Positions 11,586 to 18,586 of a stretch of DNA of 32,000 bases are shown here, in pieces. The stretch is from assembly GCA_964551375.1 (NCBI GenBank), contig CAZKBG010000001.1, positions 690,001-722,000 of the forward strand, read 5' to 3'. Made by a program: the position numbers and the translations under genes. Position 1 is the stretch's first letter. Each line of letters begins with the position of its first letter. This DNA comes from an uncultured archaeon (lineage in GTDB: Archaea > Iainarchaeota > Iainarchaeia > Iainarchaeales > JAAZKV01). The notes below the pieces were generated by a model, which was given only the letters and a program-made list of their open reading frames with translations, did not search any database and was not told the DNA's origin.

Positions 11586-12074
11586 TCATTTCTTTGAATC
11601 CAAGAATTCTAGCGCTTTTTTTGAAAAAGGAAGCCCTTTTCTTTTAAAAAATGATAAAATTTCTTTTGAAGCCGCCTCGTCGCCAACAGAAACTCTAATT
11701 GAATCATCAATATCAATTACACCTAAAACCAAGGGAAGTTTTTGATAATCAATCTGCTTAATTTTAGAAAAAGATAATGAAAAATTATTCAACCAAGACT
11801 TATATTCAACCCTATCTTCAAAAAGAACCAATTTTGCAAAAAATCGGTCTATCCTTTCATAACCAAACGGCGCCCTATCAATACCCAAATTAGGAATTAA
11901 CAACCCATTTTTACTTATCTGTTCCGGAACTTTGAAGTTTTTAAGACTGTTTTTATGCCCGCGAAAGTTTAGAAAATAAACTGCAATAAATATTATTATT
12001 ATGACAAGAGCGGCATAACCAATTACTTGATTCGCTGGCTCAACAGCCAATAAAACAATTCCAAACATCAGCAT
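11586..12074 (-). CDS. Hypothetical membrane-anchored protein
   Basis: Two N-terminal hydrophobic segments are followed by a ~110-aa soluble domain. I recognise no motif. Confidence 0.5.
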   Translation of the reverse strand: MLMFGIVLLAVEPANQVIGYAALVIIIIFIAVYFLNFRGHKNSLKNFKVPEQISKNGLLIPNLGIDRAPFGYERIDRFFAKLVLFEDRVEYKSWLNNFSLSFSKIKQIDYQKLPLVLGVIDIDDSIRVSVGDEAASKEILSFFKRKGLPFSKKALEFLDSKK

Positions 12075-12103: not shown

Positions 12104-12718
12104 CTACTTTCTTTGAGCTTCGATTTTTTTAAACACTTCTTCAACATTTTTCAAAAACCCTTCCAAATCAGGGTTGCTGTCAATGCGATAATCAGCCATC
12201 TCAATACACTTTAGATTCTGCTGCTTAAATAAACCAGGATCGCTAAGCTCCATATCCTCTTTAGCTTTAAACTCTTCAAAACTCGCCACATCTCCATGCT
12301 CATTAGGGTTATTTTTCACGCGATTTACTGTATTTTGATAACGCTTCTTAATATCCGCAAAAGGCTCAAACACTACGCCGCCCATTGACTTTAATGCTGT
12401 AACTTCTGCAGGATTTCTAAGCGAAGTTATTACAAGACGAGGCTTTTTATCAAACAATTTCAACGGAAACTGAATCCAGTAATCATTTCCTTTTTCCTCT
12501 CTAAGCTTATTTCCAAGCGCCCTCATTTCTTCCCTATCTAAATGATTTCTCCCAAGCTTCTTTAATTCAGAACGAATCTCTTCCCCCAAATCAATATGAA
12601 AAAAACCATGCTTTGAAACCAAATAATTTGCAAGAGTATCCTTTCCAGAGCCGTTTAAGCCAACAACCCCGATAAGAATTTTTGAAGGGGCCAAACCTGC
12701 AGAATTAATTTCAACCAT
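12104..12718 (-). CDS. P-loop nucleotide/nucleoside kinase-like protein (CoaE/dNMP-kinase-like)
   Basis: It has a Walker A motif (GVVGLNGSGKDTLANYL). The size (~200 aa) and the LVITSLRNPAEV strand fit small NMP-kinase folds. Substrate is unknown. Confidence 0.6.
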   Translation of the reverse strand: MVEINSAGLAPSKILIGVVGLNGSGKDTLANYLVSKHGFFHIDLGEEIRSELKKLGRNHLDREEMRALGNKLREEKGNDYWIQFPLKLFDKKPRLVITSLRNPAEVTALKSMGGVVFEPFADIKKRYQNTVNRVKNNPNEHGDVASFEEFKAKEDMELSDPGLFKQQNLKCIEMADYRIDSNPDLEGFLKNVEEVFKKIEAQRK

Positions 12719-12801: not shown

Positions 12802-13335
12802 TTAGAATTCAACTGATTCCCTTGCCAAAATTCCCTTATCAAACGGATGCTTTATTTTCTTTAAATTAGTAACATAATCGCCAAGCGCAAAAATATTTGG
12901 ATGCTCTTTATGAGAGCCTGTGATTACAAGCTCAAGCAAAGCGGGTTTTGATTTAATTACTGAAATAATATCATTTTCCTTTAACAACCCCAAATCAAGA
13001 CAATACAATAATTCATCAGCAACAATCAAATCAAAATCTTTTGAAACAACTGCTGATTTTAAAAAATTCAACGCTTCAATGGCCCCATTAATTGCTTCCT
13101 TTGTTAACGCGCTCTTAATTACCCAATCTTTTGAGCCGAACTGTTTGAAAGAAAAGTCCTTATTTTTCTGAAAAGAAATTATCTCCCCGTACTGGCCGAA
13201 CTGCTCCTGCGGGAATTTCATAAACTGAACTAAAAGAACTTTTTTATTATGCCCCAAAAATCTTGCAATGAGCCCTATGGCTGCAGTAGTCTTTCCTTTG
13301 CCATTGCCAAAATATATATGAACTAATCCAGCCAT
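12802..13335 (-). CDS. cobA: ATP:cob(I)alamin adenosyltransferase (CobA/CobO/BtuR type)
   Basis: The hallmark N-terminus is VHIYFGNGKGKTTAAIGLIARFLGHNKKVLLVQFMK, with DLIVADELLY and VITGSH further on. The ATG at 13335 is preferred; the 219-aa ORF extension would overlap the nrdJ 3' end. Confidence 0.85.
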   Translation of the reverse strand: MAGLVHIYFGNGKGKTTAAIGLIARFLGHNKKVLLVQFMKFPQEQFGQYGEIISFQKNKDFSFKQFGSKDWVIKSALTKEAINGAIEALNFLKSAVVSKDFDLIVADELLYCLDLGLLKENDIISVIKSKPALLELVITGSHKEHPNIFALGDYVTNLKKIKHPFDKGILARESVEF

Positions 13336-13433
13336 AACCAGCACTAACAAATATAAGAAAGCAAAAAAATAAAATAGGAACTCACAGCAAAAAGTGGTTG
13401 GATTAAGCTGGGTTAATTTCTGATGCGGCGATT

Positions 13434-16400
13434 TTAACTGCAGCCGCTTGTAGCGCCGCAATCTTCACAAACCGTGCAAGTACCATTTCTTCGAACTTTC
13501 ATGCTCCCGCACTCTCTGCAAGACTGGCCTGTATAACCCTTTGATTTAGCAATTGAAACATCTTCTGAAGAATTTCCTTGCGGCTTTTTTGGAACTTCAA
13601 AATTCTTTTCCACAAAAGCATTAGTATCAGTCAAGGGGGAGGCTGACAAAGTGGATTGGACTGCAACTTTGAGATTATCCTTCTTTGTTTCCTCAAGAGG
13701 TTTTATGTGAACAAAATCAGTTCTGCCCAAATATTCATATCCAAGCATTCTGAAAATGAAATCAAGAATTGAAGTGCATGATTTTATGCTATCGTGACCC
13801 ACAACCATTCCGCTCGGGTCAAATCTTGTGAAAGTGAATGAGTCTACAAACTCTTCAAGAGGAACTCCGTACTGAAGAGCTTTGCTTATCGCAACTGAGA
13901 AGCATGCTAAGAGGCTTCTATATGCCGCCCCTTCTTTATACATTGAAATAAATAACTCTCCAAGCGTGCCATCATCATATTCTCCGGTTTGGATGTAAAT
14001 CTTGTGCCCGTCAATGCTAATCTCCTGAGTGATTCCTCTTCTTCTCTTTGGCAAACGCTTTCTTTCAACAGTCTGAACAATCGCATTATGCAATTCTTTT
14101 GGACCAACTGTTTCATCAACATCATCATCAGCAGTAACTTTTAGCAGCTCTTCAGCAATATCCCCTGAAACTGCGTTAAGAGGCTGGGATAATTTGCTTC
14201 CGTCTCTGTAAAGCGCATTACTTTTCAGCATGCTTTTATGAGACAAAATATACGCTTTCTCAATATCAGCAATTGTCGCATGAGAAGGCATGTTAATTGT
14301 CTTTGAAATCGCTCCTGAAAGGAAAGGCTGAACTGAAGCCATCATTTTAATATGAGCATCCCAAGCAATGAACCTTGTGCCGTACTTGCCGCACTTATTT
14401 GCGCAATCAAATACTGATAAATCGCCTTTCTTTAAGTGAGGAGCGCCTTCAACAGTCATTGCGCCGCAAACATACTTATTAGTCTCTTCAATCTCTGATT
14501 TTGAAAACCCGAGAGATTTTAGCATATCAAAAGAATTGTCATTTAATTCATTTTCTGTAAATCCCAAACTTTTACAAAACTCTTCGCCGAGAACATATTT
14601 GTTGAAAATAAATTTTATATCAAATGCTGATTTCATTCCTGCTTCAAGCTTTGCAATCTCAAGGTCTGAAAACTTCTTTGATTTTAATTTATCAATAGTA
14701 ATTGCGGGACAATCCACTAAAGTTGCATGCCCTATTAAGTAATGCTCAATTTCCCTAATCTGGGATTCAGAATAACCAAGAGTTTTAAGCGCATAAGGCA
14801 CGCTGCTGTTCACAATTTTAAAATAACCGCCGCCAGCAAGTTTTTTGAATTTAACAAGCGCAAAATCAGGCTCAAGCCCTGTTGTGTCGCAGTCCATCAA
14901 TAATCCAATTGTTCCAGTCGGAGCAAGAAGAGACACCTGCGCATTTCTAAAACCAACTCTTTCACCCTTTGAGAGAGCATTAGTCCAAGCAAATTTTGAT
15001 TTTTCCACAATTTCCTTTGGACACAAATCTGTTTCAAATTTAACAGGCCTTATTGTAAGCCCCTCGTAACCTGCATCCCCTTCTGAAAATGCTGCGCGTT
15101 TATGATTTCTAATAACTTTTAACATATCTTTTTTATTAAGCTCATATTCTTCAAAAGCTCCAAAAAGCTCCGCCATTTCAGCGCTTGTTTCGTAAGAAAC
15201 TCCAGTCATTAGAGAAGTAATTCCTGCCGCAAGAGCCCTCCCTTCATTACTATCATACGCTAAACCAAGAAGCATTAACATGCTCCCAATATTCGCATAG
15301 CCCAAACCAAGCGAGCGGGTTTTATAGGTAACATCCGCAATTTCCTTACTTGGAAACTGCGCCATTGCAACTGAAATTTCTAAAACTATTGTCCAAATAC
15401 GAACTGCGTGAATAAATTCATCAACCAAAAATCTCCCTGATTTTACATCAAGGAATTTTACTAAATTAATTGAAGCTAAATTGCATGCAGAGTTGTCAAG
15501 GAAGAAAAACTCGCTGCAGGGATTACTTGAGCGAATCGGGCCTGACACAGGACAGGTGTGCCATTCATTAATTGTTGAATAAAACATTACTCCTGGATCC
15601 GCGCAGTTCCACGCAGCATAACAAATCTTGTCCCAAAGTTTTCTTGCAGGAAGAGTTTCACAAACAAAACCGTTTGTTCTCCACTTCAAATCCCAATTAG
15701 CATTTGAATCAAGCGCTTTGAAAAAAGAATTTGGAATTACAATCGAGTTATTTGAGTTCTGCCCCGCAACTGTAGCATATGCTTCGCTTTCAAAATGAGT
15801 ATTGTATTCAGTAATATCCATTGAGCATTTACCCTGCTGGGCTAATTGAAGGGCTCTAAAAACATAATTTAACGGAACTCCAAGCGCAATGGCTTTTTTT
15901 ACCGCAAGTTTTAATGGCCCGCTCTTTTCAGGATCATAACACTTTGCATCACATGCAATTTTCATTACTTTATTTATCTGATTAGCGCAAACCTTGCTTC
16001 CTGCAACTAAATCAGCAACCTTCTTTTCTTCTTCCATTTTCCAGTCAATAAATTCCTTTATTTCAGGATGATCAATGTCAAGCGCAACCATTTTAGCAGC
16101 TCTTCTTGTAGTTCCGCCGCTCTTTATGCTCCCCGCAACTGTGTCATAAATTTTTAAATAACTCATTAATCCTGAAGAAACTCCGCCGCCGCTTAACTTC
16201 TCCCCTTTGCCCCTAAGAGTGGAGAAATTTGTCCCTGTTCCTGAACCGTGCTTAAAAAGACGCCCCTCTCTTTTAATTAAATCAAAAATACCGCCTTCTT
16301 CCATTAGCGAATCTTTAACGTACTGAATGAAACAAGCATGCGGCTGAGGCCTTGCGTAAGCGTCGTTACTTAAAACAACTTCTCCTTTCTCAGCATCAAA

Positions 16401-16883
16401 ATAATAATGCCCATCGCTTGCGCCTGAAAAGCCATACATCCAGTGAAGCCCTGTGTTAAACCACTGAGGACTGTTTGGAGCAGCCATTTGAGCAAGAAGC
16501 ATATGCTTTAATTCTTCTTCAAAACTAAGCGCATCATCAGGAGAAGCAAACATATTCTCTTTATCGCCCCAATAACGCCAGCAGCCAGCAATTCTATTAA
16601 CAACCTGCTTAATTGAGCGCTCTCTTCCAGTCGCGGGAGCTCCTTTTTTTGGAACACCATTTGAATCGCACTCGGGAACCTTTGCGCGCTTGAAATACTT
16701 CTGCGCTAAAATATCAGTAGCGGTTTGGGACCAAAAAGTCGGCACTTCAACATCATTCTGCTCAAAAACAACAGAGCCGTCGGGGTTTCTTATGGAGCTT
16801 TTTCTTAATTCAAAAGTAAAAGAGTCAAAAACATTCTGCCCTTTTTTTGTAAAAACCCTATTTACCTTTAGCCCCTTAGCCAT
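13434..16883 (-). CDS. nrdJ: Adenosylcobalamin-dependent class II ribonucleotide reductase (long form)
   Basis: The N-terminus matches the class II RNR N-terminal domain pattern (VNRVFTKKG...FWSQTATDILAQKYF). The active-site region is SNPCSEFFFLDNSACNLASINL. The C-terminal zinc ribbon is CRECGSMKVRRNGTCTVCEDCGATSGCS. Confidence 0.93.
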   Translation of the reverse strand: MAKGLKVNRVFTKKGQNVFDSFTFELRKSSIRNPDGSVVFEQNDVEVPTFWSQTATDILAQKYFKRAKVPECDSNGVPKKGAPATGRERSIKQVVNRIAGCWRYWGDKENMFASPDDALSFEEELKHMLLAQMAAPNSPQWFNTGLHWMYGFSGASDGHYYFDAEKGEVVLSNDAYARPQPHACFIQYVKDSLMEEGGIFDLIKREGRLFKHGSGTGTNFSTLRGKGEKLSGGGVSSGLMSYLKIYDTVAGSIKSGGTTRRAAKMVALDIDHPEIKEFIDWKMEEEKKVADLVAGSKVCANQINKVMKIACDAKCYDPEKSGPLKLAVKKAIALGVPLNYVFRALQLAQQGKCSMDITEYNTHFESEAYATVAGQNSNNSIVIPNSFFKALDSNANWDLKWRTNGFVCETLPARKLWDKICYAAWNCADPGVMFYSTINEWHTCPVSGPIRSSNPCSEFFFLDNSACNLASINLVKFLDVKSGRFLVDEFIHAVRIWTIVLEISVAMAQFPSKEIADVTYKTRSLGLGYANIGSMLMLLGLAYDSNEGRALAAGITSLMTGVSYETSAEMAELFGAFEEYELNKKDMLKVIRNHKRAAFSEGDAGYEGLTIRPVKFETDLCPKEIVEKSKFAWTNALSKGERVGFRNAQVSLLAPTGTIGLLMDCDTTGLEPDFALVKFKKLAGGGYFKIVNSSVPYALKTLGYSESQIREIEHYLIGHATLVDCPAITIDKLKSKKFSDLEIAKLEAGMKSAFDIKFIFNKYVLGEEFCKSLGFTENELNDNSFDMLKSLGFSKSEIEETNKYVCGAMTVEGAPHLKKGDLSVFDCANKCGKYGTRFIAWDAHIKMMASVQPFLSGAISKTINMPSHATIADIEKAYILSHKSMLKSNALYRDGSKLSQPLNAVSGDIAEELLKVTADDDVDETVGPKELHNAIVQTVERKRLPKRRRGITQEISIDGHKIYIQTGEYDDGTLGELFISMYKEGAAYRSLLACFSVAISKALQYGVPLEEFVDSFTFTRFDPSGMVVGHDSIKSCTSILDFIFRMLGYEYLGRTDFVHIKPLEETKKDNLKVAVQSTLSASPLTDTNAFVEKNFEVPKKPQGNSSEDVSIAKSKGYTGQSCRECGSMKVRRNGTCTVCEDCGATSGCS

Positions 16884-16923: not shown

Positions 16924-17229
16924 TTATTCAACGATATCTAAAACGCGCCTCTTAAGCTCAAGCTTGTTAGCTGCTCCGCGCACAGTATCGACATGCTCAC
17001 CATTCTTAAAAATCAAAAAAGTAGGGAGACTTGTAATTCCATATCGGTGGGCAAGCTCTTCGGCCTGGGTAACATTAACTTTCAATACCCTTGCTTTGCC
17101 TGATAATTCGGTTGACAACGTGTCAAGATGAGGCATAAACGAAACACAATGAGGACACCATTCAGCCCAGAAATCAACCAATACTACTCCATTACTTACT
17201 TCACTATCAAAACTACTTGAAAAGGACAT
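16924..17229 (-). CDS. trxA: Thioredoxin with a CPHC active site
   Basis: VLVDFWAEWCPHCVSFMP ... ITSLPTFLIFKNG gives a thioredoxin fold of ~100 aa. It lies 40 nt upstream of nrdJ on the same strand. Confidence 0.9.
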   Translation of the reverse strand: MSFSSSFDSEVSNGVVLVDFWAEWCPHCVSFMPHLDTLSTELSGKARVLKVNVTQAEELAHRYGITSLPTFLIFKNGEHVDTVRGAANKLELKRRVLDIVE

Positions 17230-17624
17230 TTTATATCACCCGATTTTAAAAAATTTAAAAACTGAAACATAAAAGATTTTGGAGTTTAAAAAGCTATGTC
17301 CAATAAATGATAAAAATCGGAAAGCTAACAAAAATTAGAAAGTCAAACAAAAAAGATACTAAATCTCACTAATCTTGGACAAAATAGTTAAAAAAGCGAA
17401 TAATTTAAGCCAAAAAAGTTGTTTAATAGAACTGCTAAAGTTGTTCAAACATAAAAATAAAAAAAACAGAAAGAAAGAAATAAAAAAAATAAAAAAATCC
17501 AAAAAATTGTTTAAAAAATAAATTTACCTCGCAGAAAATACAAAAAAACAACAAAAAAATAATATTTCTCCAGAATTTGCAAATAAAATTAGCAAAAACG
17601 CCAAAAAAAGTGAAAAAATAAAAA

Positions 17625-18044
17625 TTAGTTAATGAAAGGCTCTATTTTCTCAAGACGCCACTCAAATTTAACAGGACTATCAACAATATAATCAGCAATT
17701 CCCTTTGAAGCATAGTTATTGTCAACATAAAGCGCCCAATAATGAGTAGAAGGAGCGTCAACGCCGTAAATGGAAGACACCATAACACCAAAATCATACT
17801 CTTTATATTTCATATTCTCGCCAACAAGCGACTTCATAACATCAAAAGCATTTGTGCCAACATTAAAATCCCGCGCTTCGGAAAAAATCAACGTATTAGT
17901 GTCATCAATAACTGAAATTGAAACATTAACAAGATTCTGCGAGTCCAAAACTGCAGGTTGAAAAGAAGTGCAGCCAAAAATAACTGCAAAGAGAGCAAGA
18001 ACTGCCAAAACTAAAACAAATTTTTTATTAAACACTAAAGCCAC
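17625..18044 (-). CDS. DUF4430-like secreted lipoprotein (transcobalamin-beta-domain-like, candidate corrinoid binder)
   Basis: The signal peptide has a lipobox-like VIFGC. The domain pattern VNVSISVID...GTNAFDVMKS...FGVMVSSIYGV...HYWALYVDNNYASKGIADYIV...FEWRL resembles DUF4430. The start is a GTG at 18044 or 18035; both overlap the upstream stop. Confidence 0.6.
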   Translation of the reverse strand: MALVFNKKFVLVLAVLALFAVIFGCTSFQPAVLDSQNLVNVSISVIDDTNTLIFSEARDFNVGTNAFDVMKSLVGENMKYKEYDFGVMVSSIYGVDAPSTHYWALYVDNNYASKGIADYIVDSPVKFEWRLEKIEPFIN

Positions 18045-18586
18045 CTTTCAAATCCAAGTATTAGCTGTCGCAAAGGCATAAAAATCTGGTACTTGCTTAA
18101 CCCCTTTAACACTTCAATACGCACATCCTTATCCAAAAGGAACGCAAATAGAAGAGAATATGTTGAAGTGCTTGCTAAATGGTAAAGAGTAAACGGAATC
18201 TGCCCCATAATTGTCACAATCAAATTCTGCTTGAACATAAAAGTGCTCATCATAGGACCCGTAATTGCATCAAAAATCAAAACCCCTGCAATACTTGCAA
18301 ATAAATAATGCTTAATTGACACATGCCTCATTTTTGAGAAAACAATGCCCAAAACAAGAATCACAAACGCATACGTTAACGAAGTCACAAGCGTCCAAAT
18401 CCCAACTTTTCCCGTAATAATATCAAAAGAAACCATTGCAATTATCGCAAAGAGAATCCCCGACCACAAATTCTTTCTTGCAGAAGGAAGGGCTACTCCT
18501 AGAACTGGATCATTATTTGGAAATAATCTAAAAAAACGCACGCCGTTCGCAAACAAGAGCCTCAAAACAAAACTAAGTAAAGCCAT
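18035..18586 (-). CDS. Small polytopic membrane protein, possible ECF-type S-component-like substrate-capture protein
   Basis: 183 aa with about six hydrophobic helices. Its end overlaps the start of the DUF4430-like gene, suggesting translational coupling. I recognise no catalytic motif. Confidence 0.45.
   Translation of the reverse strand: MALLSFVLRLLFANGVRFFRLFPNNDPVLGVALPSARKNLWSGILFAIIAMVSFDIITGKVGIWTLVTSLTYAFVILVLGIVFSKMRHVSIKHYLFASIAGVLIFDAITGPMMSTFMFKQNLIVTIMGQIPFTLYHLASTSTYSLLFAFLLDKDVRIEVLKGLSKYQIFMPLRQLILGFERWL

Follow-up and report, generated by a model that had tools for sequence, protein, structure and literature searches.

The window analysed here is a stretch of 32,000 nucleotides from an uncultured archaeon of the Iainarchaeota (assembly GCA_964551375.1, contig CAZKBG010000001.1, positions 690,001 to 722,000 of the forward strand), and its central feature is a pair of overlapping minus-strand genes that an original prediction, made from the sequence alone, had proposed as a minimal corrinoid uptake system. 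One gene encodes a small membrane protein related to CbrT, the vitamin B12-specific S component of an energy-coupling factor (ECF) transporter, and is called the carrier below; the other encodes a DUF4430 lipoprotein related to the beta domain of transcobalamin and is called the binder. Genes for a thioredoxin, a class II ribonucleotide reductase (RNR) and a corrinoid adenosyltransferase follow on the same strand. The features, in positions of the window, are:

18035..18586, minus strand: carrier, a CbrT-like membrane protein with predicted S-component fold, 183 amino acids (aa), ATG start, no Cys; identified by its open reading frame (ORF), a weak DUF6580 match, a CbrT profile match and a structure model.
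17625..18044, minus strand: binder, a DUF4430 lipoprotein (transcobalamin-beta-like, SLBB); GTG 18035 (136 aa) is the likely start, GTG 18044 (139 aa) the alternative.
18041..18046, minus strand: Shine-Dalgarno-like AGGTGG within the end of the carrier gene, 5 nt ahead of GTG 18035, read from the sequence.
17970..17981, minus strand: lipobox I-F-G-C, whose Cys is residue 25 of the 139-aa form and the sole Cys of the binder.
17649..17858, minus strand: DUF4430 domain proper, residues 63-132 of the binder, including the GIADY motif.
17230..17624, no strand assigned: spacer of 395 nt between the uptake pair and trx-nrdJ, with no riboswitch detected.
16924..17229, minus strand: thioredoxin (Pfam Thioredoxin, E 2e-26).
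13434..16883, minus strand: class II adenosylcobalamin-dependent RNR, NrdJ (Pfam Ribonuc_red_2_N, Ribonuc_red_lgC and TSCPD).
12802..13461, minus strand: CobA/BtuR-type ATP:corrinoid adenosyltransferase (Pfam CobA_CobO_BtuR, E 2.6e-48, match from residue 45).

The carrier ORF (18586..18035) and the binder ORF (18044..17625) overlap as had been predicted, and the minus strand reads GAA AGG TGG CTT TAG TG across their junction; the carrier stop TAG occupies 18037-18035, in-frame GTG codons of the binder lie at 18044 and 18035, and the second of these shares one base with the stop (TAGTG). The AGGTGG had been placed just upstream of both GTG codons, which is correct for GTG 18035 but not for GTG 18044, because the motif (18046-18041) contains the latter codon and cannot serve it as a start. 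The version of the binder in the public database (P0039) has 136 aa, which fits GTG 18035, and this codon was therefore taken as the start. Whichever GTG is used, the two genes look translationally coupled. Compact genomes often contain overlapping genes, and the pairing was held to be real not on the overlap but on its conservation across genomes (see below).

The binder matched Pfam DUF4430 (PF14478) with 43.1 bits against a cut-off of 23.8 over residues 63-132, which bears out the assignment made in the original prediction. Its N-terminus consists of an n-region with KK, a hydrophobic core and then IFGC, which was read as a lipobox because its Cys is the single one of the protein. An alignment of the window protein with 23 partner proteins from related loci was used as a profile and matched human transcobalamin-2 (E 8e-6), intrinsic factor (E 0.01), haptocorrin (E 0.03) and other transcobalamins, and every match to a cobalamin carrier fell on the C-terminal beta domain. 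The GIADY motif is identical in binder and human transcobalamin. An AlphaFold2 model of the binder (predicted local distance difference test, pLDDT, 88.7) was matched by Foldseek to 3U7Z (a Ruminococcus DUF4430 protein), the transcobalamin beta domain, haptocorrin and intrinsic factor with E 3e-7 to 2e-5; target-normalised template modelling (TM) scores against domain-sized targets were 0.76-0.85, and those against the transcobalamin beta domain in its free and cyanocobalamin-bound forms (5NO0, 5NP4) were 0.76-0.77 at probability 1.00. The kinship of DUF4430 with the beta domain, stated in the original prediction, was thus recovered by profile and by fold, and the model gives the binder the predicted beta-domain fold of the cobalamin carriers, which is a beta-grasp with an extra beta-hairpin (the SLBB fold, PMC1796856). 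The human beta domain in isolation binds cobalamin and cobinamide (PMC5599065), so that a protein consisting of the beta part only is a plausible corrinoid binder; by this analogy and by homology the binder is predicted to bind corrinoids. Among the 24 partner proteins, 14 carry a lipobox and the other 10 have an N-terminal helix as their anchor but lack the lipobox Cys, so that all 24 are predicted from their sequences to be membrane-tethered. An NCBIfam search returned no match for binder or carrier.

The carrier scored 22.5 bits on DUF6580 (PF20221), below the cut-off of 27. A search of a protein collection yielded 38 relatives, mostly from Diapherotrites, and the closest public relatives carry the labels Iainarchaeum or Diapherotrites. 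A family profile was built from 23 of the 38; 17 of these 23 homologues matched DUF6580 (E <= 0.01) and a few matched ECF riboflavin or generic S-component models. Searched against the PDB at E <= 10, the profile had a single match, 6FNP chain A (E 4.1e-6, profile positions 7-149), which is CbrT, the S component specific for B12 in the ECF transporter of Lactobacillus delbrueckii, and which binds cobalamin with a nanomolar dissociation constant (PMC5997447); BtuM (6FFV) was absent from the matches at this threshold. The AlphaFold2 model of the carrier (pLDDT 92.8) gave seven top Foldseek matches that are all ECF S components (4HUQ_S, ThiT, RibU, FolT), with query-normalised TM-scores of 0.41-0.64, probabilities of 0.92-1.00 and E-values of at least 0.07, and PanT and BioY, likewise ECF S components, are also among the best structural matches. 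The modelled fold of the carrier is that of an S component, in agreement with the S-component-like character that had been proposed, and the profile now relates it specifically to CbrT. Neither the carrier, which contains zero Cys, nor any invariant column of the family alignment offers a Cys, as had also been noted in setting the protein apart from BtuM. Invariant across the family are R17, P23, P27, D55, G62, W64, T68, Y72, D106, T109, G110, G128, Q129, F132, T133, H136 and L137. The Ala-x-x-x-Ala motif of S components contacts EcfT; the two helix-1 positions aligned to this motif of CbrT hold Val and Leu in the carrier and are variable in the family, in an alignment of low confidence. The family is a small one, with 251 clusters at the 50% identity level in a collection of 1.84 billion representatives, and a literature search on DUF6580 found no mention of it.

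The assembly that contains the window comprises 1.09 Mb and is 93% complete. Within this genome no match to CbiQ/EcfT was obtained even at E <= 1, no FecCD/BtuC-type permease was found anywhere, and no ECF-type ATPase was found, all small ATP-binding cassette (ABC) ATPases having non-ECF partners; each ABC ATPase either has an ABC-2 or MacB/FtsX permease as its partner or is of the ABC-F, the fused exporter or another, non-transporter type. The lack of EcfA/EcfT and BtuC-type genes that had been observed near the pair therefore extends to the assembled genome. A BacA/Rv1819c-like B12 importer was considered and found no support: the sole fused ABC protein, of 594 aa, gives a match to the generic family ABC_membrane, and its surroundings show no link to B12. 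The carrier and DUF4430 each occur in one copy, and an alpha/alpha toroid was found neither as a Prenyltrans match nor as a match to the toroid part of a relative's 521-aa protein. NrdJ is the only RNR found (a single RNR barrel, no NrdD), and CobS, CbiB and proteins with a B12-binding domain were not found in the assembled sequence, from which it follows that a complete cobamide has to reach the organism from outside. A single candidate B12 route was seen in the genome, and it adjoins NrdJ, the B12-using enzyme.

Conservation of the pair was followed in 151 genomes of Iainarchaeota, 45 of which gave a strong carrier match; related genomes are not independent, and the figures for the phylum are counts, not tests. 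DUF4430 lies directly downstream of the carrier on the same strand in 32 of the 45. A more divergent S-component-like subfamily was present in 18 further genomes, with DUF4430 adjacent in 16, and appears to occupy the same locus, given that ribose-5-phosphate isomerase stands upstream in both forms; one member of this sister subfamily scored 38.7 bits on DUF6580. The divergent protein (about 230 aa) is seen between ribose-5-phosphate isomerase and DUF4430 at L093-L097 (genomes G003, G004, G020, G002 and G114), which belong to other families of the phylum, and the genomes of the phylum sample that hold the subfamily gave no match to the NrdJ N-domain. The NrdJ N-domain was detected in 25 genomes, 24 of which contain the carrier, as against 21 of the 126 genomes without it. 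A search for EcfT was positive in 18 of the 151 genomes, among them every one of the 13 genomes of one family, and negative in 36 of the 45 that have the carrier. An ECF module encoded beside the pair in relatives was looked for and dismissed, the recurrent neighbours at positions -1 and -2 being ribose-5-phosphate isomerase and a repeat-bearing protein, not EcfT or a fused EcfA; these neighbours reflect the synteny of the lineage, not function. In the window's own genus (15 genomes) NrdJ, DUF4430 and the carrier occur together in three genomes and the carrier alone in one, and none of the three was found in 11; the cluster of carrier, binder and NrdJ may have been gained and lost as a unit.

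Two further DUF4430 proteins adjoin the pair in relatives. One, of about 190 aa, combines an ArsR-type helix-turn-helix with DUF4430 and was seen in Iainarchaeota and Micrarchaeota (L015:6994-7569 and L033:2801-3376, both minus strand); in L015 its gene is transcribed toward the end of the pair, and it is absent from the window's genome. By its domains this protein is a candidate B12-sensing transcription factor, and regulators of the ArsR-SLBB type were predicted for Methanosarcina in 2007 (PMC1796856). The other, of about 520 aa (L015:7602-9167, plus strand), carries an N-terminal DUF4430, a prenyltransferase-like alpha/alpha toroid and NPCBM_assoc, and its toroid weakly matches the eukaryotic Cobalamin_bind family; on its predicted domains it is a transcobalamin-like protein with the two halves in reversed order.

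Beyond the phylum, a scan that took a single genome from each species gave 298 relatives of the carrier, and the best 80 loci were analysed; these come from Iainarchaeota, Micrarchaeota, Woesearchaeota, Nanoarchaeota, many Patescibacteria and a few other bacteria. B12-linked neighbours, sought with a small query set, were present at 38 of the 80 loci (class II RNR at 15, CobA or PduO at 10, B12-radical S-adenosylmethionine (SAM) proteins at 8, a small adjacent DUF4430 at 19). In 18 of its 19 occurrences the small DUF4430 gene is the downstream one, at a distance of -14 to +2 nt from the carrier gene, and in one it lies upstream. When all neighbours of the 80 loci were clustered, no other function recurred across phyla, and the remaining recurrent ones were housekeeping genes of close relatives. 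Three contexts, read by their Pfam labels, illustrate the range: in one, carrier, DUF4430, Trx, NrdJ and CobA; in an Iainarchaeota locus, the carrier followed directly by two B12-radical-SAM genes; and in a Patescibacteria locus, the carrier, a class II RNR of a different type and PduO. Among 30 other carrier genomes, from DPANN archaea and bacteria of the candidate phyla radiation (CPR), 27 gave no EcfT match, two records titled complete chromosomes included. Three library proteins (P0048, P0061 and P0118) hold carrier and DUF4430 domains in one chain. In two of these a signal peptide that begins with Met is preceded, one or two residues ahead, by a Trp, which suggests that the gene caller took a TGA stop for a Trp codon, and the third shows no such trace; the apparent fusions were given little weight and set aside as evidence for a complex.

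The remainder of the locus was annotated in the same way. The thioredoxin is likely the reductant for NrdJ, and the true start of CobA probably lies inside its ORF. No cobalamin riboswitch was detected in the window at the gathering threshold, and relaxing the limit to E <= 10 brought up none in the region of the pair and the 395-nt spacer; a scan for sigma-70 promoters and terminators, which is inapplicable to archaea, gave no more sites than in shuffled sequence. An archaeal signal recognition particle RNA is present in the window. Downstream of CobA follow a P-loop kinase-like protein (12104-12718, minus strand; AAA_17 and a weak match to deoxynucleotide monophosphate kinase) and a 162-aa protein without Pfam match (11586-12074, minus strand). 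In a locus 72% identical, a Y1 (IS200-like) transposase lies just after CobA (L001:14031-14447). The NrdJ frames of relatives measure from about 1150 to 1925 aa, compared with 1149 aa in the window (e.g. L049:7225-11775, L040:1453-5979), and the longer ones probably contain inteins.

The locus was compared with known systems. The carrier resembles CbrT of the L. delbrueckii ECF-CbrT transporter (6FNP) in that it is small and has a predicted S-component fold, and its profile matches CbrT alone in the PDB; like cbrT, which lies in an nrdJ-cbrS-cbrT-pduO cluster (PMC5997447), its gene stands beside those of a class II RNR and a corrinoid adenosyltransferase. The string carrier, DUF4430, trx, nrdJ, cobA is strikingly parallel to that cluster. 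It differs in that no EcfA/A'/T module was found in the window's genome, whereas CbrT alone is inactive in Escherichia coli, and further in the archaeal host, the CobA-type instead of PduO-type adenosyltransferase and the distant sequence relation. The ECF-CbrT system and its cluster were reportedly predicted by Rodionov et al. in 2009. With BtuM of Thiobacillus denitrificans (6FFV), whose substrate is B12, the carrier shares the S-component fold and an occurrence in genomes lacking ECF modules (PMC6072759); however, the cobalt-ligating Cys80 of the T. denitrificans protein has no counterpart in a carrier without any Cys, BtuM is proteobacterial and has no tethered binder partner, and it gave no profile match at E <= 10.

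The binder half has its own precedents. A prokaryotic clade of transcobalamin-like SLBB proteins was described by Burroughs et al. 2007 together with alpha/alpha-toroid fusions, CbiO/CbiQ-like operons, ArsR-SLBB regulators and a predicted role in B12 scavenging (PMC1796856). The present locus resembles these systems in encoding an extracytoplasmic DUF4430/SLBB protein beside an S-component-type transporter, and its relatives carry the alpha/alpha-toroid fusion and the ArsR-SLBB regulator as well. The described prokaryotic systems and Lsa1836-1840 of Lactobacillus sakei have CbiO/CbiQ-like genes and usually a toroid partner, whereas neither was found in the window's genome, which has the beta part only, and the L. 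sakei system is assigned to heme. To mammalian transcobalamin, intrinsic factor and haptocorrin (2BB5, 5NO0/5NP4, 2PMV, 4KKI) the binder is related through a beta domain homologous by profile and fold, GIADY included; unlike these proteins it lacks an alpha domain, it would be lipid-anchored rather than secreted, and its partner would be a membrane carrier instead of an endocytic receptor. The architecture had been called undescribed in the original prediction. This holds for the archaeal, ATPase-less, beta-only form, for which a literature search found no description and which is what is new here; it does not hold for the kinds of component, since the CbrT cluster (PMC5997447), BtuM and the bacterial transcobalamin-like/ECF operons predicted in 2007 (PMC1796856) were already known.

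The anatomy of the genes, the two homologies with their folds, the lack of a detectable ECF module or B12 synthesis, the conserved pairing and the neighbourhood of B12 enzymes together make it probable that the pair takes up corrinoids as a two-part system and needs no ECF ATPase module to do so. In the predicted sequence of steps, the binder, lipid-anchored on the outer face of the membrane, would catch a complete cobamide supplied by the environment or by a host cell and hand it over to the carrier, a six-helix member of the CbrT branch of ECF S components. The pocket of the carrier would open to the two sides of the membrane in turn, and the cofactor would be released inside by ATP-independent translocation, with no motor. 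Net uptake would probably come about by trapping, in that CobA would adenosylate the cofactor and NrdJ, the sole RNR, would bind it. Motor-free S components have precedents in BtuM and the solitary BioY, and trapping was proposed for BtuM as well (PMC6072759). A broader proposal is put forward tentatively, as one that may well fail: that DPANN archaea and CPR bacteria share a B12 importer of an undescribed mechanistic type, in which a solitary CbrT-type carrier has lost the ECF motor and depends for loading on a tethered transcobalamin-beta-like protein, as a binding-protein-dependent S component with uptake by intracellular trapping only, and that this is the main B12 route of these ultra-small organisms for their only RNR.

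Several observations weigh against an uptake system without a motor, and they are set out here together with the explanations that they favour. CbrT of L. delbrueckii requires its ECF module in E. coli and on its own gave that host no B12-dependent growth (PMC5997447), so that activity of a CbrT relative without a motor is not a given. Carrier and CbrT are distant relatives by their profile match (E 4e-6), and in Foldseek the carrier reached weak E-values (0.07 and above). Seven per cent of the genome is unassembled, and family f13 of the phylum possesses the pair plus a short CbiQ/EcfT-like gene elsewhere in the genome. The pair might thus import corrinoids with the carrier acting as an ordinary ECF S component, the energising module being unassembled, too divergent or of another kind. 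This was judged unlikely, as no EcfT match was seen at E <= 1, the small ABC ATPases all have non-ECF partners, and EcfT was not found in most of the sampled carrier genomes inside and outside the phylum, two titled complete chromosomes among them; the Val and Leu at the CbrT Ala-x-x-x-Ala positions point the same way, within that low-confidence alignment.

The substrate and the pairing can be questioned as well. The L. sakei ECF system lsa1836-1840, which includes transcobalamin-like alpha and beta proteins, was reported for heme uptake (bioRxiv 10.1101/864751), the SLBB fold accommodates ligands of many kinds, a metabolite other than B12 might be what archaeal SLBB proteins scavenge (PMC1796856), and 42 of the 80 loci had no B12-linked neighbour under the small query set. 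Uptake of another tetrapyrrole, e.g. heme, or of some other soluble ligand is nevertheless very unlikely in our judgement: the neighbours that recur across phyla are all B12-dependent or B12-activating (class II RNR, CobA, PduO, B12-radical SAM), the carrier tracks NrdJ in the phylum, the window's genome needs B12 and shows no other route for it, and the archaea discussed in 2007 make their own B12, which the present one does not. Adjacency by genome compaction, with the DUF4430 protein serving an unrelated surface role and the carrier acting alone or on another substrate, would accommodate the 13 of 45 carrier genomes without an adjacent DUF4430 and the AR10 and Patescibacteria loci in which the carrier stands beside NrdJ with no DUF4430 next to it. 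It does not account for the fact that in many genera, and with either of the two divergent carrier subfamilies, the genes adjoin on the same strand with -14 to +2 nt between them, nor for the ArsR-DUF4430 regulator and the DUF4430/toroid surface protein that join the pair in relatives, and it was considered highly improbable. Corrinoid uptake by binder and carrier without an ECF module was retained as the preferred reading.

On this reading the archaeon appears to depend on imported B12 for its DNA precursors, and the pair is the likely entry point of an essential cofactor, because NrdJ is its only RNR and neither CobS nor CbiB, which serve in assembling the nucleotide loop, was found. The relatives of the carrier belong, in the samples analysed, mainly to DPANN archaea and CPR bacteria, groups whose dependence on partners is poorly understood. 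The family would add a second lineage, independent of BtuM, of predicted B12 carriers that have an S-component fold and no motor, and the dedicated binder on the outside would make the working of solitary S components directly testable. If the predicted function is correct, the beta half of the B12 carriers of animals acts on its own in archaea.

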